Below, one piece after another: positions 5,960 through 21,188 of a stretch of DNA of 64,000 bases. A model generated the notes under the pieces. That model was given only the letters and a program-made list of their open reading frames with translations. It searched no databases and was not told where the DNA came from. Position numbers and translations under genes: made by a program. Location of the stretch: assembly GCA_963827235.1 (NCBI GenBank), contig CAWHAE010000018.1:160001-224000 (forward strand), written 5' to 3'. Every line of letters begins with the position of its first letter. Position 1 is the stretch's first letter. The stretch is from an uncultured bacterium. GTDB lineage: Bacteria; Chloroflexota; UBA5177; JANWHV01.

Positions 5960-6130
5960 GCGTCCGCGGTAGTCCCGTTCCAGCGCTGCCTGCGCCGCCG
6001 GGCGCGTGAGCATGTGCCTGGTATTATGCAAGTGTTCCCGTTCTGCGACGGGTTTCCGCCTCCCCCAAGCACTGCGCCTATATGCGGAGCCGAACACCAG
6101 ATGAGCTCACCCACGAATCGTGTCACCTCT

Positions 6131-7128
<998 letters not shown>

Positions 7129-7132
<4 letters not shown>

Positions 7133-8091
7133 AGGCGTGGCAGTCCCTGCGAGCACGTCGCAAGGCTCCTCTGGCGGGCGATCGGCGAGTTACAAGCGGC
7201 CGGCCGCCGTCCCCGCTGCTCGACGAGACCGCACTTCGCCAGCTGATGCGCCTGCGCCTGGAGAGCGGTCGTGCGATCACGGGCTGGTTTACAGGAGAAC
7301 ATGATGGCCAGCGCAGGACCCAGGCTCTGGAGTTCGAGGACTACCGCGGCTACGTGCCCGGCGACGACTTTCGCCTGATCGACTGGAACGCGTACGGCCG
7401 CCTCGGCGAGCTGTTTGCGAAAACGTCGCGCGCCGAGGAGACCCTCCAGGTCTCGTTGCTGGTCGACTGCAGCCGATCGATGGATTGGGGCACTCCCAGC
7501 AAGCTCCGCTATGCCAAGCAAGTAGCGGCTGCCCTGGGTGCCCTCGCGCTGCTGCACGGCGATCCCGTACGTGTCTACGCGCTCGGAGACGGCAGGGCCG
7601 TCCCCGGCGCGCCGCTGTACAATCCGACCGACCTCCCGGCCTTGATTGCCGGACTGGAAAGCCTGCCGCAGCTCTCGGCAACCGACTTCGCGGGTTCCGC
7701 CTCCGAGTTCCAGCGCACCGCCCAGCCGGGCGGCGCCATCTTCGTGCTCAGCGACCTGCTCTCGTCGATGGCAGACGTGGCCATGCTGGGCTTCCTGGCG
7801 CTCCCGGGCACCTCGCTCGTCGTCGTGCACGTCTATGATCCGGCGGAGGCGCGGCCCGAGCTGGGCGGAACGGTTGAGCTGCGCGACCGCGAGTCCGGTG
7901 CCACGGCCGTGCTCTCGGTAACACCCAACCTGCGCCGGCTCTATGCGATCCGGTTTCAGGAGCGTTCGCTTGAGATCCGCGACCGCCTCGCTGCCGCAGA
8001 CGCCGGCTATGTCACCGCTCCTACCTCGGTGACTTCGGTCGACCTGGTCGCCGGCGGTCTGCATACCGAAGGCATGGTCGCGCGCGGCTGA
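7129..8091 (+). CDS. DUF58 (vWA-like) protein, MoxR partner
   Basis: 'EFEDYRGYVPGDDFRLIDWNAYGR', 'VDCSRSM', 'VLSDLL'; GTGA overlap with moxR. Confidence 0.92.
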
Positions 8092-10560: not shown

Positions 10561-10895
10561 CCGTCGAGGCCGGAGGCACTCCGGTATCGTCACAACGTCG
10601 AGAGGATCAATCGGTGCTGTTTCCGGCCACGCTGGAATCGCCAAGGGCAACGCCCGCAGGGCGTCACCGGTCGCCCACACCTATCCGCTACGAGCGCGTA
10701 CTGGCGCTCTGCATCTCCGGATGGCGGGCCGGTCCCAGGGTCGCGGCGGGCTGGTTTGCGCCTTCCCTGGATGCTGCACTGCGCATGGCTCCCCGCCTGG
10801 CGCCGGAGACGCAGCCATGCGCGGCTCTATTCGTGTCGGCCGCCGAGACTGGCGGCCCACGCTCCGGCCGTGCCTCCGGAGACAGGACCGGTTCG

Positions 10896-12395
10896 TTGAC
10901 ACCGGCCGGGAAGGCCGAGTTTCGGCCGGCGGCAAGCCATATTTCGGTTCGCGCAGCCTTGGCGCGCATCCACGCCTGTATCCGGCGTGCCTGGCTCGTG
11001 GCCGCCTGCCTGCGCGCGTTGCAAGCGGGCTTGTTCGCCGGACTCGTCATGGCCCTCGCCGTGTTCTGGCAAGGCTGGAGCCCCATGGTCGTGCCGCTCG
11101 CCGTGCTCGCCACGACCGCGATCCTATTCTCGATTGCTGCCCGCAGGCAGCCCGACATGGATGCGACGGCACGATACCTCGACCGGAAGCTCGGCCTGAA
11201 GGAAGCGCTGGCCACCGCCCTCGATCTGGAGTCGGCCGGCAGACGGTCGAGCCTGAGCCTGCTGCAGAGGCAGGCCGCGGCCGACCTTGCCGGCACGATA
11301 GCTGCCCGCCAAATCACCACACCGTCAGTCACCATCGGTGCGTGGGCGATCTCTACCCTGCTGCTCTGCACGACGGCGGCTGTACTGCTCGTACCGCACG
11401 CCGACCAGGCTACGGTGCGAATGGCGGCCATGGCCGGGCGACAACCCGCAAACCCGGCAGCCACCTTCCCCAGCACCGCGGCGGTCGCGACGAGCAGCTC
11501 TATCGTGGTGCGCGTTGCCGTGGTCGGCACGACGCGCGACACTGCCGCGCCGGGCCGGCGCGCCGTGCGGCCGTCGGGCGCCCAGCGAGCGACAGTGATC
11601 AGGTCGGCGAGCAAGGCGCAACCCGCGGGCAGGCAGTCCGCGACTACAGGCAGTACCGGCAAGTCCGGCACCGCAGGCACGGTCAAGGGGCAGACGCCGG
11701 GGAGCGGCGCTCAGCGCACCCTGCCGTTCCTCCAGGGCAGCCAGAGTTTTCTGCCTACGTCACCGTCCGCCTCCGGACGGGCAGGAACGGTCCTGCCGGG
11801 CTCGCAGGCACGACCTGCCGGCGCGAGCGCCGGGACAAGGGGGAGCGCGAGCGGGGCGGCAACGGGCACCGGTGCAGCGGCCAGGAGCAGCACCGCCAAG
11901 CCAACGGGCAAGAGCGCAGGGCAGAACGGCCAGGGATCCGCGAGCCATGCCGGAGGGTTGGCGGGCAAGCAGGGCAACGGCGCCGCCTCGACAGGCCAGT
12001 GCTTGTACGGGTGCCTGCAAATCACCAAAGCTCAGCTCGCAACGCCAGGTCTGATTACCGGGAAAGGCCAGTTCAGCGGGAGCGGCACTCCAGGCGGTTC
12101 GACGGCAGGGCACTCGGCCGGCAGTGCGCCGAAATCCGGCAGCGCGGTGGCTTCCAGCTCCCCAAAAGGGCGCCAGCTCAATCTCACCAGTCCGTACAAT
12201 GCATCGCAGTCGGGGTCCAGCAGCTCCAGCCAGGCAAACGGCCACAACGGAGCCGGATCGGCGAAACAGTCGGTCGTGTCGGCCGGCGCCGCGGTAGCCC
12301 AGTCGTTCCAGTATGTGCCGCCCGACGCCAATCTGCGGCAGCCTGGCGATGCGAGCCTGGTCGCGCGGTACTTCCGGCATGGGTCGGCGGCGTAG
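10896..12395 (+). CDS. Membrane protein with long Gly/Ser/Ala/Thr low-complexity region (DUF4175-like member of MoxR/vWA operons)
   Basis: Three TM segments, 'ARYLDRKLGLKEALATAL', C-terminal 'LVARYF'; ORF open from 10614, TTG 10896 chosen (AGGA upstream). Confidence 0.7.
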   Translation: MTPAGKAEFRPAASHISVRAALARIHACIRRAWLVAACLRALQAGLFAGLVMALAVFWQGWSPMVVPLAVLATTAILFSIAARRQPDMDATARYLDRKLGLKEALATALDLESAGRRSSLSLLQRQAAADLAGTIAARQITTPSVTIGAWAISTLLLCTTAAVLLVPHADQATVRMAAMAGRQPANPAATFPSTAAVATSSSIVVRVAVVGTTRDTAAPGRRAVRPSGAQRATVIRSASKAQPAGRQSATTGSTGKSGTAGTVKGQTPGSGAQRTLPFLQGSQSFLPTSPSASGRAGTVLPGSQARPAGASAGTRGSASGAATGTGAAARSSTAKPTGKSAGQNGQGSASHAGGLAGKQGNGAASTGQCLYGCLQITKAQLATPGLITGKGQFSGSGTPGGSTAGHSAGSAPKSGSAVASSSPKGRQLNLTSPYNASQSGSSSSSQANGHNGAGSAKQSVVSAGAAVAQSFQYVPPDANLRQPGDASLVARYFRHGSAA

Positions 12396-12416: not shown

Positions 12417-14279
12417 ATGACGCTGCTCAGTCCCCTTGCCCTGCTCGGATTGGTCCTGGTGCCAGCTCTTGTGAGCCTGCATCTCCGGCGCCGCCAGGCC
12501 CGTCCGGTCGAGATCCCCAGCCTGATCCTGTGGATCGACCTGGGAGCAATGGCAGCCTCGTCCGGCAGGCGTTGGCGCATCGAGCAAGCACTCTTGCTCC
12601 TGCTTCAGATCCTTGCCGTCGTTTCGCTCACAGTCGTGCTGGCTCAACCGAGCGGCAGCGCGACCGTGTTGGGCACGCGCGTCTACGTGATCGACGACGG
12701 GATGCTCATGCGCGTTGCCGATCCGGCGCCGTCCCGGCTGCAGGCGGCCAAGACGCTCATCGCCGGGGACATCCAGTCCGCGCCGGCCGGCACGAGCCTG
12801 GCAATAGTCGCCGCGGGGGCAGTGCCGCGTCTGCTGATCGCGACGACCGATCGGGCATCGGCCCTGACGGCATTGAGAAGACTGCAGCCGGTGCCTGCAA
12901 CACCCGATTTCGAAGCAGCGCTGCGCCTTGCCGCCGGCCTCCTTTCCTCACGAAACGCCCGCCTGCGGATCGCCTATTCTGCCGGCGAGCAGTTGCCGCC
13001 GGTCGGCGTCGCGGCGGGTATGCTCTCACGCGATGCTATCGGCGACGATCGCGGCAACCAAGCAGTCGCCGGCCTGGCCGTTCGCTGCGCCGGCGGCAGC
13101 TCTTGCAACGCCTTCGCGGCCATTCAGAACAGCGCTGCCTCCGGGCTCCAGGATACCGTGCTGATTGAAGCCGACGGCCGGCTGCTCGGTGAGAAGCAGC
13201 TGGATCTGCCGGCCCTCTCGAGCACGAACCTCAGCTTCGCGGTGCCCGCGGCGCGGCACGTGCTTCAGGTCACGCTGGCGCGGCAGGATCTTGCCGCCGC
13301 CGACAACGCCGCTTTCGCGGTCATTCCCGGGCAGCGGAACTCTACTGCCACCGTCGTGGGCACCGCGACGCTTGCTGCTGCCGTGGCCAGGGCGCTGAGT
13401 GCCGTGCCGGGCGTTCGCGTGGTCACGCTGCCGCCGAGCAAATATGGAACCGTGGCGCGCGGCAGGGCAGGGCTTCTGGTACTTGCCGGCTGGATGCCAG
13501 CCGGGTCGCTGCCGCCGACGCCGAGTCTGCTGATCGTGGATCCACCGCGCTTTCCCGGGGGGTCCGCGCCCGCGCCGCTGGCTGATACCACGATCAGCGG
13601 CGAGGATCTCGCGAATCCGCTGCTCTCCGGCGTCGACCTGACGTCACTCAGCATCCCGCCCGGCAGCGCCTGGCAGCTAGCCCTGCCGGCAGGATTGCAG
13701 CCGGCAGTGTGGACCAGCGCCGGACCGCTCATCTCGGCTGGATTGCTCGACGGACGGCGTGTCGTCGTCCTGGGTTTCGACCCCACGGCGTCCAATCTCG
13801 CCCAGCTTCCCGCTTTTCCCTTGCTCGCCGCGAACGTGGTGCAGTGGACAGGCGGATGGCTGCCCCAGTCGGCCGTGCCTGGTTCCGGCCTCTCGGTGGC
13901 CGTTCCGCCTGCCACCACCTCGATCGAGGTATCAACTCAGGCAGCGCTGGGCGCCGCGGCCGTCTCCTCTCGCCTCGTCGCCAGTGGAAGCAACGCGTAC
14001 CTGACCGTGCCGTCGCCCGGTATCTATACGGTGACCGAGCGCGGCGCGTGGGGCAGCCGCGAGGCACAGATCGCGGTCAGTGCCGGCCCTCCCGTGCAGA
14101 CCCTGCCGGCCGCGGCGATCGCAGCAGGCTCGAACAGCGCGGCCACGGTGCCGCTCGAGAAGCCGGCAACCCTCTTGGTCTGGCCATGGCTGGCAGTCCT
14201 GGCAGCGCTGCTGATCGCCGTGGAGTGGCTGGCGCTTCTGTCTCGTTATCGCTCGGCCGCCAGGCCCGCGGCGATGTGA
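12417..14279 (+). CDS. BatA N-terminal domain + vWA domain membrane protein
   Basis: BatA-like 'LLSPLALLGL...LHLRRR...PSLILW'; degenerate MIDAS 'IDDGMLM', 'SRLQAAK'; C-terminal TM 'WPWLAVLAALLIAVEW'. Confidence 0.85.
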   Translation: MTLLSPLALLGLVLVPALVSLHLRRRQARPVEIPSLILWIDLGAMAASSGRRWRIEQALLLLLQILAVVSLTVVLAQPSGSATVLGTRVYVIDDGMLMRVADPAPSRLQAAKTLIAGDIQSAPAGTSLAIVAAGAVPRLLIATTDRASALTALRRLQPVPATPDFEAALRLAAGLLSSRNARLRIAYSAGEQLPPVGVAAGMLSRDAIGDDRGNQAVAGLAVRCAGGSSCNAFAAIQNSAASGLQDTVLIEADGRLLGEKQLDLPALSSTNLSFAVPAARHVLQVTLARQDLAAADNAAFAVIPGQRNSTATVVGTATLAAAVARALSAVPGVRVVTLPPSKYGTVARGRAGLLVLAGWMPAGSLPPTPSLLIVDPPRFPGGSAPAPLADTTISGEDLANPLLSGVDLTSLSIPPGSAWQLALPAGLQPAVWTSAGPLISAGLLDGRRVVVLGFDPTASNLAQLPAFPLLAANVVQWTGGWLPQSAVPGSGLSVAVPPATTSIEVSTQAALGAAAVSSRLVASGSNAYLTVPSPGIYTVTERGAWGSREAQIAVSAGPPVQTLPAAAIAAGSNSAATVPLEKPATLLVWPWLAVLAALLIAVEWLALLSRYRSAARPAAM

Positions 14280-14295: not shown

Positions 14296-16902
14296 ATGAC
14301 GCATGCCGTGATCGCTGCCGCGTTCGTCCTTCAATCGCCGCGCGCGCTCTGGCTCTTGCTCCTGCCCATCGCCCTGGTCGCGCTGACCGCGGCACGCCTT
14401 CGCCAGAGTCGAGGCGAGCGCGGCAACGCCGTGGCGACGAGCCTTCGCGGCATTGCTCTCTGTGTTCTCGTGGTGGCGCTGGCACAGCCTACCTGGCAGG
14501 TGACCCAGACGTCGATGGGCCTCACCCTCGTGCTCGATAATTCCGCGAGCATCTCGCCCACGGGCCGCGCCACGGAAGCACACTGGCTCCTAGACGGCGC
14601 CGCCGCTGCGTCCAGTGCGTCGCCGCTACGCGTCGTCACCTTTGCCGGCAGCGGGTCGGCGCTCACCGTGGAAGGCCCGTTGAGCCGAAGCACCGTCGAC
14701 GGCCTGTTGCGGCCCGCCGGCGATGCATCGCAGACCGACCTCGCCGGTGCCCTCGAGCTGGCCGCCGGTATCGCACCGTCGCATTCTCGGGTCGTCGTGC
14801 TGACGGACGGGCTTCAAACCACGGGCGACGCCGGCTCGGCCCTATCCAGTCTGGTCGCCGGGCACCTGACCGTCGACACGGTAGCGCTGTCCGAACCACT
14901 GCAACCGGACGAGGCTGTGACCCGAGTGGCGCTGCCGCCGTCGGCACCGGAGGGCGCGGCACAGGTGGTCCAGGTGACGATCAACTCCACCGAGGCCCAG
15001 ACATCGACCCTGAGAGTACGGATCGATGGGCGGACCATCGGAAGCCAGTCGCTAGCCCTGCCCGCAGGCACGAGCTCGTATCTCGTCAACCTACCCGGTC
15101 AGGCTGCCGGATGGCACACGGTGCAGGTCACCGCGCGGGCGAGCGCGGACGTGGTGCCGCAGAACAACAGCCTATCCGCGGTGGTCGACGTAGTGCCGCC
15201 GCCAAGCGTGCTCCTCGTCGACCGGCAAGCGCCAAGCAGTGAGGCCCGGACCGTGCTCGGCGCTGCTCCCGTCTCCATCGTGGAGACGCTCCCGCGAGCC
15301 GTGCCCACATCTCCCGCTCGGCTTGCCCAATACAGCTCCGTCGTGTTGGACAATCTGCCTGCATCAGCCTTTTCTGCCGCGCAGGTAGCGGCACTGGACA
15401 CGGCGGTGCAGAAGCAGGGCGTGGGGCTCTTCGTACTGGGTGGCTCGCACAGCCTGACTCTTGGCCACTATAGCGAGACCGCGCTCGAGCGTCTACTGCC
15501 CCTGCAGAGCGAGACGCCCGCCAGCCTGCAGAACGGGAACGTCGCCCTGCAGCTCGTGCTCGACCGATCGGGAAGCATGGACGACCTCGCCGGCGGTGAC
15601 GTGCCCAAGATTCAGATGTCTCGCTCGGCCGCGCGCCTTGCCGCCGGCTTCGCCATGCAGCACACCGACGACTTTGGCATTCTCGCCTTCGACCAGGTCT
15701 CGCACATTCTCGTGCCCATGGGCAAGGTGACCTCGGCCGACGCGGCTCGCCTGAATCGCGCCATCAACGGCATGTTCAGCGACGGCGGCACCAACATCTA
15801 CCAGGCCCTGCAGCAGGGCATCCAACAGGTGAGCCGGAGCGCGGCGCCGTATCGCCACATCATCCTGATGACGGACGGCAGGAGCGACCCGGCAAACTAC
15901 CAGCCGTTGTTCCGCGAAGCGGCGGCCGATAGGGTCACTATTTCAACGGTAGGCCTCGGCCTGGATGCCGACACACAGCTGCTGCGGTACATGGCCGCCC
16001 AGGGTAAAGGGCGCTTCTACTTCACGAACAACGGCGCCGACCTGCCGCGCATATTCGCGGAGGAGGCGCGCTTATCGGCCGGGTCGGCGGCGGTCACCGG
16101 CACGATCGCCGTGCAGATGGCGCACAGCAGCCCGCTGACTCGAGATCTCCCCAGTGGGCGGCTCCCGAATCTCGCCGGGTATGTCGCCACGGTACTGAAG
16201 CCCGATGCCTCCGCCGATCTGGTGACCAGCATCCGGAACCGCCGGCCCGATCCGCTGCTTGCCCACTGGCAGTACGGTCTGGGCAGGGTGGCCGTCTGGA
16301 CGCCCGGGCTGGAAGGCTCGTGGCCGGCACCATGGCGTCCGGCGCAGGACGAATTTTGGTCGGACGTGCTCCAGTGGTCGTTGCGCGGCCCCTCGACGCC
16401 GGCCTACGCGGCTTCGATTGTGCCGTCCCCGGCCGGCTACTCAATCCAGATCGATACGCTGACCAACACCGGCGCCGCCCAGGACCTGCAGCAGATCGAC
16501 GTCGATGTCCGCGCTCCCGACGGCAGGACGTCCAATCTACTGGCGATACAGACCGAGCCGGGGCTCTATCGAGTGCCGCTGGCGCTGACCGCGCCAGGTG
16601 CCTATGTGGTGACCGCCAGGCCGGTCTTCGGCGGCGCTGCAGCCCAGACCACCACCGTGCTCGCGGTGCCCTATGCGACCGAATACCGGCCCGCGGCAGC
16701 GAACGTCGCCCTGCTCGAGACAATCGCGGGCTCCACCGGAGGTGCTGTCCTGTCTGCTGCCGGCGCGCCGCCCTCCGCGCGACCGCCTGCTGGACAGACG
16801 GAGAACCTGGCCTGGCCGCTCGCGCTGGCCGCTCTCCTCCTCTTTTTCGCCGCAGTCGGTGCGGAGCGGCTGGCGACCGACATGGAGCCGGCAGGCCCGT
16901 GA
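14296..16902 (+). CDS. Double-vWA + GATase1-like membrane protein
   Basis: Two intact MIDAS motifs (LDNSAS...LTDG; LDRSGSM...GGTNI...MTDG), 'GLFVLGG', 'PLLAHWQYGLGRV'; N- and C-terminal TM. Confidence 0.88.
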   Translation: MTHAVIAAAFVLQSPRALWLLLLPIALVALTAARLRQSRGERGNAVATSLRGIALCVLVVALAQPTWQVTQTSMGLTLVLDNSASISPTGRATEAHWLLDGAAAASSASPLRVVTFAGSGSALTVEGPLSRSTVDGLLRPAGDASQTDLAGALELAAGIAPSHSRVVVLTDGLQTTGDAGSALSSLVAGHLTVDTVALSEPLQPDEAVTRVALPPSAPEGAAQVVQVTINSTEAQTSTLRVRIDGRTIGSQSLALPAGTSSYLVNLPGQAAGWHTVQVTARASADVVPQNNSLSAVVDVVPPPSVLLVDRQAPSSEARTVLGAAPVSIVETLPRAVPTSPARLAQYSSVVLDNLPASAFSAAQVAALDTAVQKQGVGLFVLGGSHSLTLGHYSETALERLLPLQSETPASLQNGNVALQLVLDRSGSMDDLAGGDVPKIQMSRSAARLAAGFAMQHTDDFGILAFDQVSHILVPMGKVTSADAARLNRAINGMFSDGGTNIYQALQQGIQQVSRSAAPYRHIILMTDGRSDPANYQPLFREAAADRVTISTVGLGLDADTQLLRYMAAQGKGRFYFTNNGADLPRIFAEEARLSAGSAAVTGTIAVQMAHSSPLTRDLPSGRLPNLAGYVATVLKPDASADLVTSIRNRRPDPLLAHWQYGLGRVAVWTPGLEGSWPAPWRPAQDEFWSDVLQWSLRGPSTPAYAASIVPSPAGYSIQIDTLTNTGAAQDLQQIDVDVRAPDGRTSNLLAIQTEPGLYRVPLALTAPGAYVVTARPVFGGAAAQTTTVLAVPYATEYRPAAANVALLETIAGSTGGAVLSAAGAPPSARPPAGQTENLAWPLALAALLLFFAAVGAERLATDMEPAGP

Positions 16903-17016: not shown

Positions 17017-17057
17017 TTGACAGTATAAGTTTGCTAATCTATTATCGAAGTAGCAAA
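17017..17057 (+). promoter_or_regulatory. Sigma70-type promoter with overlapping inverted-repeat operator
   Basis: TTGACA (17017-22), 17-bp spacer, TATTAT (17040-45); TTTGCTA-N14-TAGCAAA at 17030-17057. Confidence 0.8.
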
Positions 17058-17189: not shown

Positions 17190-17693
17190 ATGGCAATGAC
17201 GGCAGTCCCGCGCAGATCCATGTTGTTCGCCGCGTGTGCGCTCCTGGTATCGGCCCTGCTGTTGGCCGGCACGAGCACGGCGGTCGTCCGCGCAACGACC
17301 GGGCCGTCGGCGAATCACCCGCCTACGTTCAAGGTGAACAACAAGTTCGCTGCGCTCTTCACGGGTGAATTTACGCTCAAGTCCGTGCCCGCGTCGGCGC
17401 GCATTCAATCGGCGGCGCTCGGCATCGAAGTCGACGACAACGGTAACCTCTACGGGATTGCCCAGTTCTACGGGTACGACGCGTCTGGATTCCAGACGAG
17501 CTGGGTAGCTTCCCTCTACCACTTCCGGCAGACGGCCAAGACCCAGATGTCGCTGGATCTGCTGACCTCGTCGCTCTCCGTCGTGCTCGGGCGCATGGTA
17601 GTTGCCCCTCCAAGCCACGGCAGCATGACCGGCAGTCTCATCCTGAGCGGCCACACATACCCCGTCGTGTTCCACAAGATCTCCAACGCCTGA
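17190..17693 (+). CDS. Small secreted beta-rich hypothetical protein (paralog of 8167..8694)
   Basis: Signal 'PRRSMLFAACALLVSALLLAG'; purine-rich RBS region; codon usage matches neighbouring genes. Confidence 0.8.
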   Translation: MAMTAVPRRSMLFAACALLVSALLLAGTSTAVVRATTGPSANHPPTFKVNNKFAALFTGEFTLKSVPASARIQSAALGIEVDDNGNLYGIAQFYGYDASGFQTSWVASLYHFRQTAKTQMSLDLLTSSLSVVLGRMVVAPPSHGSMTGSLILSGHTYPVVFHKISNA

Positions 17694-17921: not shown

Positions 17922-20060
17922 ATGCACGTATCCATGCGGCGAGGCGCTGCCATGGTGGCAATCGCTTCGCTTCTGGTAGCCGGACTGGCGGGGGTCAGCG
18001 AGGCGCAGGAGCAGGCATCGGCGGCCAAGGCGGCTGCCGGCGGCAACGTGGATTGGGCACTCTTTGGCGGCAATGCCGATAATACCCGGTACTCCACGCT
18101 CACGCAGATCGACGCGAGCACCGTCGGCAAGCTTGGCATCGCCTGGACGGCGTCCGAAGGCAACGGTTTGTCCGAGTTCGAGACCGTGCCCGTAGTGGTC
18201 AACGGCGTCATGTATTACACCACCAACAGCGACCAGGTCCGCGCCGTCAACGCGGCCACCGGGCAGCTCATGTGGCAGTACACGCCGAAGGTCGACTTCT
18301 ATAAGTCGGTTGCCGGCGGAGGCGGCGGCCTGCCGACCAATCGCGGCGTCACGATCGCCAACGGAACTGTATACTTGACCACCTTCGACGCGCGGCTAAT
18401 CGCCCTGCAGGCGTCCACCGGCGAGCAGCTCTGGTCCAGCAACATCGCCAGTCCCGCCGAAAACTACTCCGAGTCTTCGCCGGCCACCTACTGGAACGGC
18501 ATGCTGTTCGTAGGCAGCGAGGAAGGCGATGCCGGACTGCGCGGCTTCGAGGCGGCTTTCGATGCCAAGACCGGCAAGCAGATCTGGAAGTTCTACACCG
18601 TGCCCGCGCCAGGCCAGGGCTGGATGCCCGCGGTCGGCGACCACGGCGGCGGCGATGTCTGGATGCCTGCCACCGTCGATCCCACGACCGGCTTGGTCTA
18701 TTTCGGCACCGGCAATCCCAGCCCGGACTTCAACAACGTGCAGCGGCCCGGCTGCAACCAGTGGGCCAACGCGGTCGTGGCGCTCGACGCCAAGACCGGC
18801 AAGCTGGCATGGGCGCATACCGAGTTCTGCAACGACGAGTGGGACTACGATTCGCACCAGGAGCCGATGCTGTTCAACATGACCATCAAGGGCCAGATGG
18901 TTCGCGTGCTCGGCCACGGCAACAAGGCCGGCCAGTACTTCTTCTACAACGCCAAGACCGGTGCCGTGATCAGCAAGACGGCGTTCCTGGGAGGCTTCAG
19001 CGTGCCGCATCTCAAGCCCAACGCGGCAGGCGTCAAGGTCTGCCCCGGCGCTTCGGGCGGCATCGAGTACGGACCTCCGGCCTTCAGCCCGCAGACGAGC
19101 CTGGTTTACCAGGGCTCCAACGTCGAATGCGAGATCTTCAAGACGCTGCCCATGGCAGACACGAACTCGCACAGTAAGGGGCAGGTTGACACCGGCGGCT
19201 CCGCCGCGGGTGCTGGAACCATCAACGGCGCCATGAATGCCATCGACCCGGCCACCGGCAAGGTTGTCTGGAAGGATACGCTTGGCAAGCCGATGAACGC
19301 CGGGGCGCTTACCACGGCCGGCGGCCTGGTCTTCGCCGGCGCCGACACGGGCAAGCTCTATGCATTCGACGCAGCCACGGGCAAGATCCTCTGGCAGCCC
19401 GATCTAGGTCTCGGCTTCGGCGCACCGCCAATTGCCTATCAGGTGAACGGCACGGAGTACATTGCCGTGGCGGCCGGCGGAAACGCTATCTCAGCCGGCG
19501 ACGCCGTGCCGCTTGGCGGCACCCTGGTCGTCTTCAAGCTGGGCGGCAAGCCGATCGCGAAGCTTCCGTCGGTCACTAACGGTTCCATGGTGCAGGTCAC
19601 GCTGCCCTCGCTCGCCGGCTATAAGCAGGTGGACAAGTTTGCCTATGTCAACGCGGCGCAGCACACCGTGGTTCTGCAGATCACCGCGGCGCTCAACGGC
19701 AACAATGCCGGCTTCAACTACGACGGCTACGCCAAGGGTCAGGCTACCTTCACCGTGCCGGCGCACTGGAACGTCGACATCGAGTACCGCAATCTGGGCG
19801 CCCTTCCGCACAGTCTTGCCATCGCCGACGGCATCACGCAGCCGGTGAAGTTCGAGACGTTCGGCTTCGCGCCGGTGTTGAGCCCGTCCGTGACTACCGG
19901 CACGACGAACAAGACGTATACGCTCCTCGGCTTCGACGCCGACCACGCGGGCAAGTTCTACCTGATTTGCGACGTGCCTGGACACCTGGCCAGCGGCATG
20001 TGGGACACGTTCGTGGTCTCCTCGACGGCAACCACGCCGTCGATTACCACGACCTCCTAG
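17922..20060 (+). CDS. Secreted PQQ-dependent dehydrogenase fused to a C-terminal sulfocyanin-like (type-1 Cu) cupredoxin domain
   Basis: PQQ-ADH motifs 'DWALFGG..NTRYSTLTQI', 'TNRGV', 'GGDVW', 'GTGNPSP', 'DEWDYD'; C-terminal 'FNYDG...VPAHWNV...N..ALPHS...YLICDVPGHLASGMW' (His; Cys-x4-His-x4-Met). Confidence 0.9.
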   Translation: MHVSMRRGAAMVAIASLLVAGLAGVSEAQEQASAAKAAAGGNVDWALFGGNADNTRYSTLTQIDASTVGKLGIAWTASEGNGLSEFETVPVVVNGVMYYTTNSDQVRAVNAATGQLMWQYTPKVDFYKSVAGGGGGLPTNRGVTIANGTVYLTTFDARLIALQASTGEQLWSSNIASPAENYSESSPATYWNGMLFVGSEEGDAGLRGFEAAFDAKTGKQIWKFYTVPAPGQGWMPAVGDHGGGDVWMPATVDPTTGLVYFGTGNPSPDFNNVQRPGCNQWANAVVALDAKTGKLAWAHTEFCNDEWDYDSHQEPMLFNMTIKGQMVRVLGHGNKAGQYFFYNAKTGAVISKTAFLGGFSVPHLKPNAAGVKVCPGASGGIEYGPPAFSPQTSLVYQGSNVECEIFKTLPMADTNSHSKGQVDTGGSAAGAGTINGAMNAIDPATGKVVWKDTLGKPMNAGALTTAGGLVFAGADTGKLYAFDAATGKILWQPDLGLGFGAPPIAYQVNGTEYIAVAAGGNAISAGDAVPLGGTLVVFKLGGKPIAKLPSVTNGSMVQVTLPSLAGYKQVDKFAYVNAAQHTVVLQITAALNGNNAGFNYDGYAKGQATFTVPAHWNVDIEYRNLGALPHSLAIADGITQPVKFETFGFAPVLSPSVTTGTTNKTYTLLGFDADHAGKFYLICDVPGHLASGMWDTFVVSSTATTPSITTTS

Positions 20061-20219: not shown

Positions 20220-21188
20220 TCAGCTCTCGACGAACACCGCTCCCTCCAGGTTGTAGCTCTTCGCCGAGAGGTTAGTGGGTAGCCTGATGGCCTGGAAGGT
20301 ACTGCCGCTGGGACGTATGACCCAGAAATACGCGTGCAGCTCGCTCCCGACCAGCACGTCGCCGGAGTATGCGGCCAGGCCGGCGGCGGGAGCAAAGAAC
20401 ACATCGCGAGAGAGCGTATCGGTGACATAGAGGCCCGCTTGAGCCCCGGCACCCGCAGCGGCCTGCCGGCGCGGCACTACCGCGATCGGGTTCGGACCAT
20501 CCGGGAGGTCGACCAGCGTTCTCGCCCGGCCGTGCGCGTCCATCGCCACCAGCGTGCCGCTCTTGCCGGCATCAACTGTGAGCAATGCCTGTCCCGACGC
20601 GGCGCCGAACTGAGGGGATGCAATCGCTACCTCGTCGGCGCCGCCTGGATCGTTGTACGTGCCGACCAGTGCCACTTTGCCCGCGGCATCCACCGTGAAC
20701 ACGCTACCGCCGCGCGGCGTGGCTCCGCCCGAGCGGCCGGTTGCCGCCACCAGTCTGTAGCCGAAATCTCCCACGGTGTCGAAGGCAAGTGCGCCGTCGG
20801 AGCGAGGCACGTGCGGCAGCGCGGCAAACACCGAGACGCTCTTGTCGCCGGCACCGATGCGGTAGATCTTGTTGTCGGGCGAGTGGCAGAAGATGTCGCC
20901 GCTCGCAAAGCCGTGCGAGCCGGGCGACGGGACGCAGCGCGTCTCCTCAACCTGCCTCGGCATAGCCGCGAACGGCGTCATCTTCTGCCCGGTGGGCGCG
21001 GCGGCGAAGACACGATTGGTGGTGTTGTCGACGTAGAGAAACTGATCGCCCGTCCATACCACGTCGGTGAGCCGCAGATCGGTACGAGCGAAGACGCTGA
21101 ACTGGATCGCGGGCGTGGCAGGACTCGCCGCCGTGAGTGGAAATAGCGTCACAGCCAGGGCGAGGCCCAGGACTTTCGGTGATTTCAT
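20220..21188 (-). CDS. Secreted beta-propeller-like hypothetical protein (SMP-30/NHL-like)
   Basis: Sec signal 'MKSPKVLGLALAVTLFPLTAA'; blade-like motifs 'DGALAFD', 'DGPNPIAV', 'GLYVTDT'. Confidence 0.7.
   Translation of the reverse strand: MKSPKVLGLALAVTLFPLTAASPATPAIQFSVFARTDLRLTDVVWTGDQFLYVDNTTNRVFAAAPTGQKMTPFAAMPRQVEETRCVPSPGSHGFASGDIFCHSPDNKIYRIGAGDKSVSVFAALPHVPRSDGALAFDTVGDFGYRLVAATGRSGGATPRGGSVFTVDAAGKVALVGTYNDPGGADEVAIASPQFGAASGQALLTVDAGKSGTLVAMDAHGRARTLVDLPDGPNPIAVVPRRQAAAGAGAQAGLYVTDTLSRDVFFAPAAGLAAYSGDVLVGSELHAYFWVIRPSGSTFQAIRLPTNLSAKSYNLEGAVFVES

Follow-up and report, generated by a model that had tools for sequence, protein, structure and literature searches.

The window analysed here, 64,000 nucleotides of an uncultured Chloroflexota bacterium (GenBank assembly GCA_963827235.1, contig CAWHAE010000018.1, positions 160,001 to 224,000), contains a gene that joins a pyrroloquinoline quinone (PQQ) dehydrogenase propeller to a blue-copper domain. 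The gene is a single unbroken and complete frame on the forward strand (17901/17922-20060). Read from the ATG at 17922, which is preceded by a G-rich Shine–Dalgarno-like stretch, it encodes 712 amino acids and a stop (protein P0001). The domain layout is given in Table 1 together with the surrounding features.

A propeller fused to a cupredoxin

The closest sequences to the fused protein in the PDB are 1kb0 and 1kv9 (phmmer E about 5e-66). Comparison of the predicted structure with solved ones by Foldseek gave 1yiq, 1kb0, 1kv9, 8gy2 (a Gluconobacter alcohol dehydrogenase, ADH), 6zcw and 4mae/6dam as the best matches (E 1e-47 to 1e-43, 27-30% identity), and the eight-bladed fold is superposable on 1kb0, 6zcw and 6dam with target-normalised template modelling (TM) scores of 0.66-0.81 and a Foldseek probability of 1.0. 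The sole disordered part of the whole-protein model is residues 1-39, where the predicted local distance difference test (pLDDT) lies below 50; by reading of the sequence, this N-terminus carries no lipobox. The linker between the two domains shows gaps and low column conservation at residues 550-560, and pLDDT falls to 67 at 551-560. A complex prediction of propeller residues 40-556 against cupredoxin residues 566-712 gave a score of 0.12 and a mark of 0.32, and is used neither for nor against any reading.

The initial annotation had assigned the C-terminal domain to the type-1 copper cupredoxins, with a full ligand set and sulfocyanin motifs, and the analysis bears this out. In addition to the PF06525 match, the motifs quoted earlier were located at residues 598 (FNYDG), 628 (LPHS) and 683 (CDVPGHLASGMW). 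The four ligand positions H630, C683, H688 and M693 are invariant in all 106 members of an alignment made of P0001 and 105 of its 120 best relatives; 15 short sequences were left out (P0024, P0059, P0064, P0088, P0099, P0103, P0110, P0113 and P0115-P0121). Whether the domain would model as a cupredoxin had been set beforehand as a refuting test. Modelled alone with a 50-row alignment, the C-terminal 157 residues reached a pLDDT of 95.8, and Foldseek matched the domain to rusticyanin (E about 1e-7, probability 1.0), then to Chloroflexota auracyanins and then to CuA domains. Copper binding by the domain is predicted from the invariant ligands. The claimed absence of a CxxCH haem motif is also correct: the fused protein has only five cysteines (278, 303, 374, 403 and 683), none of them in such a motif, and none of the 107 full-length members contains one.

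The two domains are truly fused, and the arrangement is conserved. When 5.8 billion proteins were searched, both PF01011 and PF06525 were present in 112 of the 120 best-scoring relatives; the other eight are 495-566 amino acids long, and the source entries of three describe them as partial. With each GTDB species represented by one genome, a further scan detected 16 full-length fused genes, spread over 7 public metagenome-assembled genome (MAG) records, three from Chloroflexota (6, 5 and 1 copies) and four from Actinomycetota of Thermoleophilia (Solirubrobacteraceae, Conexibacteraceae, Solirubrobacterales and one labelled just Actinomycetota). The window's own genome holds a second fused copy on another contig, C9, at 55% identity. 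The alternative that two genes were joined by an error of assembly or annotation is vanishingly improbable, as the frame is uninterrupted and the same fusion recurs in the 112 relatives, which come from independent assemblies and several sources, in the 7 public genomes and on C9. Such independent recurrence already refutes an artefact, which leaves the initial annotation's fusion standing as a genuine one.

Across 401 sampled genomes of the phylum (a tally that includes one unpublished genome, G343, on which no conclusion depends), the cupredoxin was matched in 44. Cupredoxin-bearing frames of at least 690 amino acids are present in 4 of the 5 genomes of the window's genus (G000 included) and in 0 of the 396 others. 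Fused genes can be tandem, with three in a row at one locus (L019), and genomes of the same genus carry 4-6 fused frames. Among the genomes scanned, one Chloroflexota genus and Thermoleophilia are the only groups in which the SoxE-type fusion turned up. Just three public DNA sequencing runs share sequence with the stretch, each containing 5-10% of its words; no RNA run is listed.

Table 1. Features of the fused gene and of its surroundings in the window
Feature	Position	Strand	Basis or remark
MoxR AAA+ ATPase	6014..7132	+	Pfam (AAA_3 198.6 bits)
DUF58 protein	7129..8091	+	Pfam
PQQ-only paralogue, 45% identity	8730..10427	-	lost residues N265->T, D308->S, D310->G, W247->Y
593-aa protein of no assigned family	10614..12395	+	syntenic with the fused gene
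BatA/VWA protein	12417..14279	+	Pfam
VWA protein	14296..16902	+	Pfam
Promoter-like site TTGACA-17-TATTAT ahead of companion gene	17017..17045	+	consensus match only
Companion gene, 165-aa secreted protein	17196..17693	+	conserved, 228 nt upstream of the fused gene
PQQ dehydrogenase-cupredoxin fusion, whole gene	17922..20060	+	Pfam; AlphaFold2 model, mean pLDDT 90.4, predicted TM-score (pTM) 0.89
N-terminal export signal, residues 1-28 (MRR, hydrophobic core, S-E-A then Q)	17922..18005	+	read from the sequence
Eight-bladed PQQ propeller, residues 45-545	18054..19556	+	PF01011 264 bits, gathering score 26.7
Gly5 loop G132-G136	18315..18329	+	alignment to the vicinal Cys-Cys of 1kb0
D308-Y-D310, predicted catalytic Asp and extra Asp, probably lanthanide-type	18843..18851	+	alignment to XoxF 6dam
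Variable linker, about 30 residues (546-575), conserved end L-P-S-L-K/A-G	19557..19646	+	column conservation
Sulfocyanin/rusticyanin-type cupredoxin, residues 576-708	19647..20045	+	PF06525 62.2 bits, cut-off 21
Predicted Cu ligand codon H630	19809-19811	+	
Predicted Cu ligand codon C683	19968-19970	+	
Predicted Cu ligand codon H688	19983-19985	+	
Predicted Cu ligand codon M693	19998-20000	+	

The active site and the glycine loop

In the propeller, W-D308-Y-D310 aligns with 'dewdyd' of the XoxF structure 6dam, while MxaF (1w6s) has 'dewdya' at this place, 1kv9 'dswdft' and the quinohaemoproteins 'dytS/dftA'. D308 is kept in 105 and D310 in all 106 aligned members. The accessible part of PMC11996626 describes D-x-D as the diagnostic lanthanide motif of PQQ dehydrogenases. 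D203 aligns with the metal-binding Glu of other enzymes ('ggaEyg', 'sggEfg'); the position is Asp in 99 of the 106 members and Glu in 7. Further, E87, R141, T154, W247 (the stacking Trp), N265 (the Asn metal ligand) and K335 are kept throughout the alignment. Judged from these residues, the metal site is probably lanthanide-type, and the fused enzyme would be loaded with PQQ and a lanthanide.

At the position of the vicinal Cys-Cys of 1kb0 the fused protein has a run of five glycines (G132-G136), with Gly in 101-106 of the 106 members at each position; a Cys-Cys pair in this region was found in 0 of 107 full-length members. The history of this Gly5 loop was followed in a tree of 80 PQQ domains from the fetched loci, restricted to tblastn matches that cover 440 or more residues of the query. 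A single supported clade (99 in the Shimodaira–Hasegawa-like approximate likelihood ratio test) contains all 18 fused genes and 26 unfused ones. The fused genes sit on several deep branches, with at least 4 label changes, 2 of which are forced by supported branches, and the simplest reading of the sequences would be a single gain followed by losses of the cupredoxin. Every one of the 18 fused genes has the Gly-rich loop, compared with 1 of 62 unfused relatives (L032), and lineages that no longer have the cupredoxin have also lost the loop. It is probably an adaptation by which the face of the propeller accommodates the attached copper domain.

On this evidence we consider it likely that the gene encodes an exported eight-bladed PQQ dehydrogenase, probably of the lanthanide type, whose C-terminal type-1 copper cupredoxin serves as a dedicated one-electron acceptor. 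An alcohol, aldehyde or sugar would be oxidised at the PQQ/metal site with D308 as the base, and PQQH2 would then give its two electrons singly to the tethered Cu(II), a step for which type II quinohaemoprotein ADHs use their haem c domain, and methanol dehydrogenase (MDH) and XoxF use cytochrome cL or XoxG. The Cu(I) formed would in turn be re-oxidised by the aerobic chain at the outside of the membrane, most likely by way of the cytochrome c domain on subunit II of the genome's single caa3-type oxidase, or of a sulfocyanin associated with the bc complex.

Neighbouring genes and cofactor supply

The immediate neighbours of the fused gene are MoxR/VWA genes, the small companion protein and RecG. 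The set of MoxR, DUF58, 593-aa, BatA/VWA and VWA genes is syntenic with the PQQ dehydrogenase clade in both Chloroflexota and Thermoleophilia. The gene order of the window's upstream set is repeated at the locus L026, and members of the set also lie near fused genes at L028-L031. Overall, MoxR/DUF58 and/or VWA genes are found near fused genes at 5 of 15 fused loci, and a MoxR gene is present at 23 of the 31 loci L034-L064, with an adjoining DUF58 gene at 20. The set resembles mxaR, mxaS, mxaC and mxaL of methylotrophs. According to the accessible part of PMC12276312, MxaR (MoxR), MxaS, MxaC, MxaL (VWA), MxaA and MxaK are needed for the insertion of Ca into MDH, and by analogy the window's MoxR/DUF58/VWA cluster is probably an equivalent metal-loading machinery. 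A different assignment, to a 'MoxR-vWA-beta-propeller conflict system', was ranked below the mxaRS-like one because the ATPase scores 39.6 bits on PF20030 against 198.6 on AAA_3, and because the genes are syntenic with catalytic PQQ dehydrogenase genes.

The PQQ-only paralogue in this cluster may, from the residues that it has lost, be a non-catalytic pseudo-enzyme. The orthologue from Chloroflexota at L026 has lost these residues too, whereas D-Y-D persists in most Actinomycetota orthologues (DYG at L028). The companion gene recurs 190-260 nucleotides upstream of the fused genes of L019, L023, L025 and L039, and likewise upstream of a second, amicyanin-type fusion on contig C14 of the same genome, which is described below. 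Its product belongs to an orphan family of 27 clusters with no Pfam domain, and it found no family match in Pfam, NCBIfam, the PDB or the Atlas; at a guess, based on analogy with MxaI/MxaJ, it might be a small subunit or a loading chaperone. On the other side, a gene convergent with the fused gene (20220-21188, reverse strand) encodes a 322-aa secreted protein whose best family is DUF6923 (16.6 bits, below the cut-off of 27). Two homologues of this protein (61% and 43% identity) flank the fused gene at L027.

Several observations weigh against the fused gene encoding a working PQQ dehydrogenase with its own copper acceptor. The vicinal disulfide, which mediates electron exit in MDH, is absent from the fused protein, and two positions that we take to be PQQ contacts differ from 1kb0 ('NW' to 'EY' and 'PWN' to 'PMN'). 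The protein scores 357.1 bits on the NCBIfam methanol/ethanol PQQ family TIGR03075, below its cut-off of 480.05, and 325 bits on the NCBIfam 'acido-empty-quinoprotein' group A, the cut-off of which is 650. The cupredoxin, too, stays below the cut-offs of the NCBIfam equivalogs for archaeal sulfocyanin (TIGR03094, 63.9 vs 168.4) and rusticyanin (TIGR03095, 23 vs 146.7). The link between the Gly5 loop and the fusion comes down to 2 independent contrasts on supported branches, or 4 on all branches, and is not significant by a sign test. Split genes lend no Rosetta-stone support, with a PQQ dehydrogenase within 10 kb of 0 of 32 stand-alone sulfocyanin-like loci, and the closest unfused relatives, in Solirubrobacterales, have no cupredoxin gene within 10 kb. 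Finally, the own genome (7.98 Mb in 21 contigs, 95.9% complete, 9% contamination) lacks PqqC (0 matches to PF03070, a control matched in 6 of 14 control genomes, and 0 to TIGR02111), and it has no PqqE above the cut-off (best 77.6 bits vs 381).

The initial annotation's 'full secreted PQQ-ADH propeller' is thus upheld in its export signal and its strong PF01011 match, and fails at the vicinal Cys-Cys and at the methanol/ethanol family cut-off. The scores below the cut-offs for that family and for archaeal sulfocyanin place the fused protein in a distinct clade of the superfamily, outside every curated equivalog. As for PQQ, the lack of PqqC and PqqE means that the cofactor would have to be scavenged. 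A single match to the PqqD family PF05402 in the own genome is not taken as evidence of PQQ synthesis, since matches also occur in control genomes that we take to be without it. In G172 and G127, the genomes of the genus with most fused frames, PqqC scores 325 bits (cut-off 240), which shows that the TIGR02111 model works in the genus, and G172 has pqqB, pqqC, pqqD and pqqE in a row, all above their cut-offs (L105, G172:C41:1161-4835). Two further genomes of the genus, G181 and G154, have no PqqC, as in the window's own genome. PQQ production therefore varies within the genus, and the pqq genes of these relatives indicate that the lineage uses PQQ. The organism probably either scavenges PQQ or has pqq genes in the unassembled remainder of its genome.

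These same data bear on whether the protein is an 'empty' quinoprotein, in which the propeller would act without PQQ as a binding or scaffold module and the cupredoxin would be the sole redox centre, for example in metal-ion oxidation, a role put forward for rusticyanin and archaeal sulfocyanin. The missing pqqC and true pqqE, the 325 bits on the 'acido-empty-quinoprotein' group A and the loss of catalytic residues in the neighbouring paralogue all point in that direction, and PMC10654088 puts sulfocyanin forward as the first electron acceptor from Fe(II) in Ferroplasma. However, the catalytic Asp, the D-x-D motif and the Asn, Trp, Arg, Lys and Glu residues are invariant or nearly so in the 106 members, which would be unexpected without a cofactor. 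Further, the 325 bits are far below the cut-off and also below the 357 bits for the PQQ ADH family, pqqBCDE is present in the same-genus genomes richest in fused genes, and metal-insertion genes of the MDH type are syntenic. Taken as a whole, the evidence makes an empty propeller quite improbable.

Proposed electron route, known systems and significance

The sulfocyanin-like family, to which the copper domain of the putative PQQ enzyme belongs, is a respiratory module in bacteria. Among 50%-identity representatives, its domain is fused to cytochrome b and cytochrome c in P0261, and to COX2 and cytochrome c in P0182. P0261 is encoded at L071:2-1234, in the same public MAG record as six of the fused PQQ genes. 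Both P0261 and P0182 are bacterial respiratory complexes with built-in blue-copper modules. In the own genome (C12, L100:6012-7528), a Rieske [2Fe-2S] gene runs at its stop into the start of a 192-aa sulfocyanin-like gene, and a histidine kinase follows. Respiratory genes (COX1/COX2, cytochrome b or Rieske) are found no more than 10 kb from 10 of the 32 stand-alone sulfocyanin-like loci. The genome's sole COX2 is of the caa3 type, with a C-terminal CxxCH domain, and adjoins COX1. From these respiratory ties and the caa3-type COX2 we infer that the likeliest route would run from PQQH2 to Cu, then to the caa3 cytochrome c or a chain-bound sulfocyanin, and finally to O2; direction, route and final acceptor are all predictions from the genes. 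The own genome also encodes, on C15 (L099:7267-8415, reverse strand), a 382-aa protein in which the sulfocyanin-like domain occurs twice in tandem (PF06525 119.9 bits); its neighbour is a 364-aa protein of unassigned function.

The copper domain might instead supply secreted or surface copper enzymes, or other external acceptors, and not the respiratory chain. The Chloroflexota fused proteins have a plain signal peptide and neither a lipobox nor a C-terminal anchor, and the multiple, often tandem, copies per genome are a pattern typical of substrate-diversified secreted enzymes. A precedent is the fungal PQQ pyranose dehydrogenase (AA12), which feeds lytic polysaccharide monooxygenases (LPMOs) via a cytochrome b domain, according to the accessible parts of PMC13575373 and PMC8348568. 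However, no LPMO or laccase gene lies beside the fused gene, and, apart from these fusions, the cupredoxin family is associated with cytochrome b, Rieske and COX genes. Further, actinobacterial members are membrane-held lipoproteins, with L-A-A-C lipoboxes in the Solirubrobacteraceae homologues P0084 and P0092. An external supplier is therefore unlikely, and delivery of electrons to the aerobic chain is the preferred reading.

A copper relay had been suggested to suit a monoderm, which has no periplasm to retain a diffusible carrier. In the genome, neither Omp85/BamA (a control that matched 7 of 14 control genomes, all of which we take to be diderms) nor LpxC (matched in 4 of 14) was found, which fits a monoderm, and the distribution of the SoxE-type fusion agrees with the suggestion. 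However, a second kind of fusion limits it. On contig C14 of the own genome (L102:10802-12934, reverse strand) lies a 709-aa PQQ dehydrogenase with a vicinal Cys-Cys, D-F-D and a C-terminal cupredoxin with the loop C-I-P-H-P-W-M; its cupredoxin matches PF00127 (E 1e-4) and TIGR02657 (28 bits), both below cut-off. In this family, 118 of the 120 best relatives are at least 660 amino acids long, and among those 118, CxPHP[WFY]M, CC and D-x-D each occur in 117 and CxxCH in 0. Joint Genome Institute records label this large family 'quinohemoprotein ethanol dehydrogenase', despite the lack of CxxCH in every member. Source labels give Chloroflexota for some members, Alphaproteobacteria for P0331 and P0336, and Stellaceae for P0375. 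The amicyanin-type members in Alphaproteobacteria mean that PQQ-cupredoxin fusion is not confined to monoderms, so the monoderm rationale is only partly supported. At the same time, two cupredoxin types on two PQQ dehydrogenase lineages provide convergent support for a functional coupling.

A bolder proposal combines these elements, namely a haem-free lanthanide/PQQ 'quino-cuproprotein' that would send electrons through its own type-1 copper directly to a caa3 oxidase at the outside of a monoderm membrane, with the Gly5 loop replacing Cys-Cys as the electron exit, in a design that would have arisen at least twice (sulfocyanin-type in Chloroflexota and Thermoleophilia, amicyanin-type in Chloroflexota and Alphaproteobacteria). 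We put this forward tentatively, as an idea that stands a real chance but that we slightly doubt in its entirety.

The nearest known systems are the type II quinohaemoprotein ADHs (Comamonas testosteroni 1kb0; Pseudomonas putida ADH IIB 1kv9 and ADH IIG 1yiq), which likewise are soluble exported proteins built of a propeller, a linker and a C-terminal redox domain. They include the best PDB matches by sequence and take the top of the Foldseek range (E 1e-47 to 1e-46, 29-30% identity). The comparison with them drawn in the initial annotation was apt, as the nearest solved propellers are of type II and have their cytochrome c at the same terminus as the cupredoxin. However, the fused protein has a cupredoxin for the cytochrome c, Gly5 for Cys-Cys, D-Y-D for D-Y/F-T and Asp for the metal Glu, and it lacks the C-terminal cytochrome c with CxxCH that defines type II. 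The lanthanide-dependent PQQ dehydrogenases XoxF, ExaF and PedH (6dam, 4mae, 6zcw) are close in fold (E 1e-44 to 1e-43), and the D-x-D motif aligns exactly with that of XoxF; yet these enzymes keep Cys-Cys and use separate cytochromes c (XoxG, PedF), and the fused protein, 27-30% identical, falls below the TIGR03075 cut-off.

On the copper side, SoxE of the Sulfolobus SoxM oxidase supercomplex and rusticyanin share PF06525, the H...C-x4-H-x4-M spacing and the His-Ser pair with the fused domain (residue names of the rusticyanin/sulfocyanin copper site follow the accessible part of PMC10654088). Unlike them, the fused cupredoxin is the C-terminal domain of a dehydrogenase in a bacterium, and it is outside TIGR03094 and TIGR03095. 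Electron transfer from a quinone-cofactor dehydrogenase to blue copper has precedents. Methylamine dehydrogenase passes single electrons to amicyanin, and ADH IIB works with azurin; in both pairs the cupredoxin is separate and diffusible, whereas here it is covalently fused. Azurin, a cupredoxin, is named as the physiological acceptor of the type II enzyme ADH IIB in the accessible part of PMC8348568. The same part of that source describes the fungal PQQ pyranose dehydrogenase (AA12 with an AA8 cytochrome b), also a propeller with a built-in relay domain, which differs in its six-bladed propeller, its haem b relay and its eukaryotic origin.

No description of a PQQ-cupredoxin fusion was found in literature searches aimed at this architecture, and the accessible parts of 10.64898/2026.07.10.737718, PMC10875860, PMC11996626, PMC6315138 and PMC10654088 contain no relevant mention of one. 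Within that scope, the architecture is uncharacterised, as had been claimed. The novelty is copper instead of haem as the built-in relay of a PQQ ADH, in an arrangement that is widespread in uncultured soil lineages. To our knowledge, all characterised PQQ ADHs pass their electrons to haem, be it cytochrome cL, XoxG, c550 or a fused or associated cytochrome c, and we know of blue-copper proteins solely as separate downstream acceptors of these enzymes. Automatic annotation names PQQ-cupredoxin fusions 'quinohemoprotein', 'cytochrome c' or 'BamB', so surveys based on names would misread them.

A natural and conserved PQQ-copper fusion would be a fourth architectural type of quinoprotein ADH, and would offer a compact, self-contained system for PQQ-to-copper electron transfer and bioelectrocatalysis. 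Lanthanide-type PQQ metabolism would then also be known from monoderm lineages of the soil, Chloroflexota and Thermoleophilia, that have no periplasmic pool of cytochromes. If the bolder proposal above is true, PQQ-dependent oxidation in soil bacteria would commonly discharge through copper and not cytochrome c, an outlet that has been overlooked.

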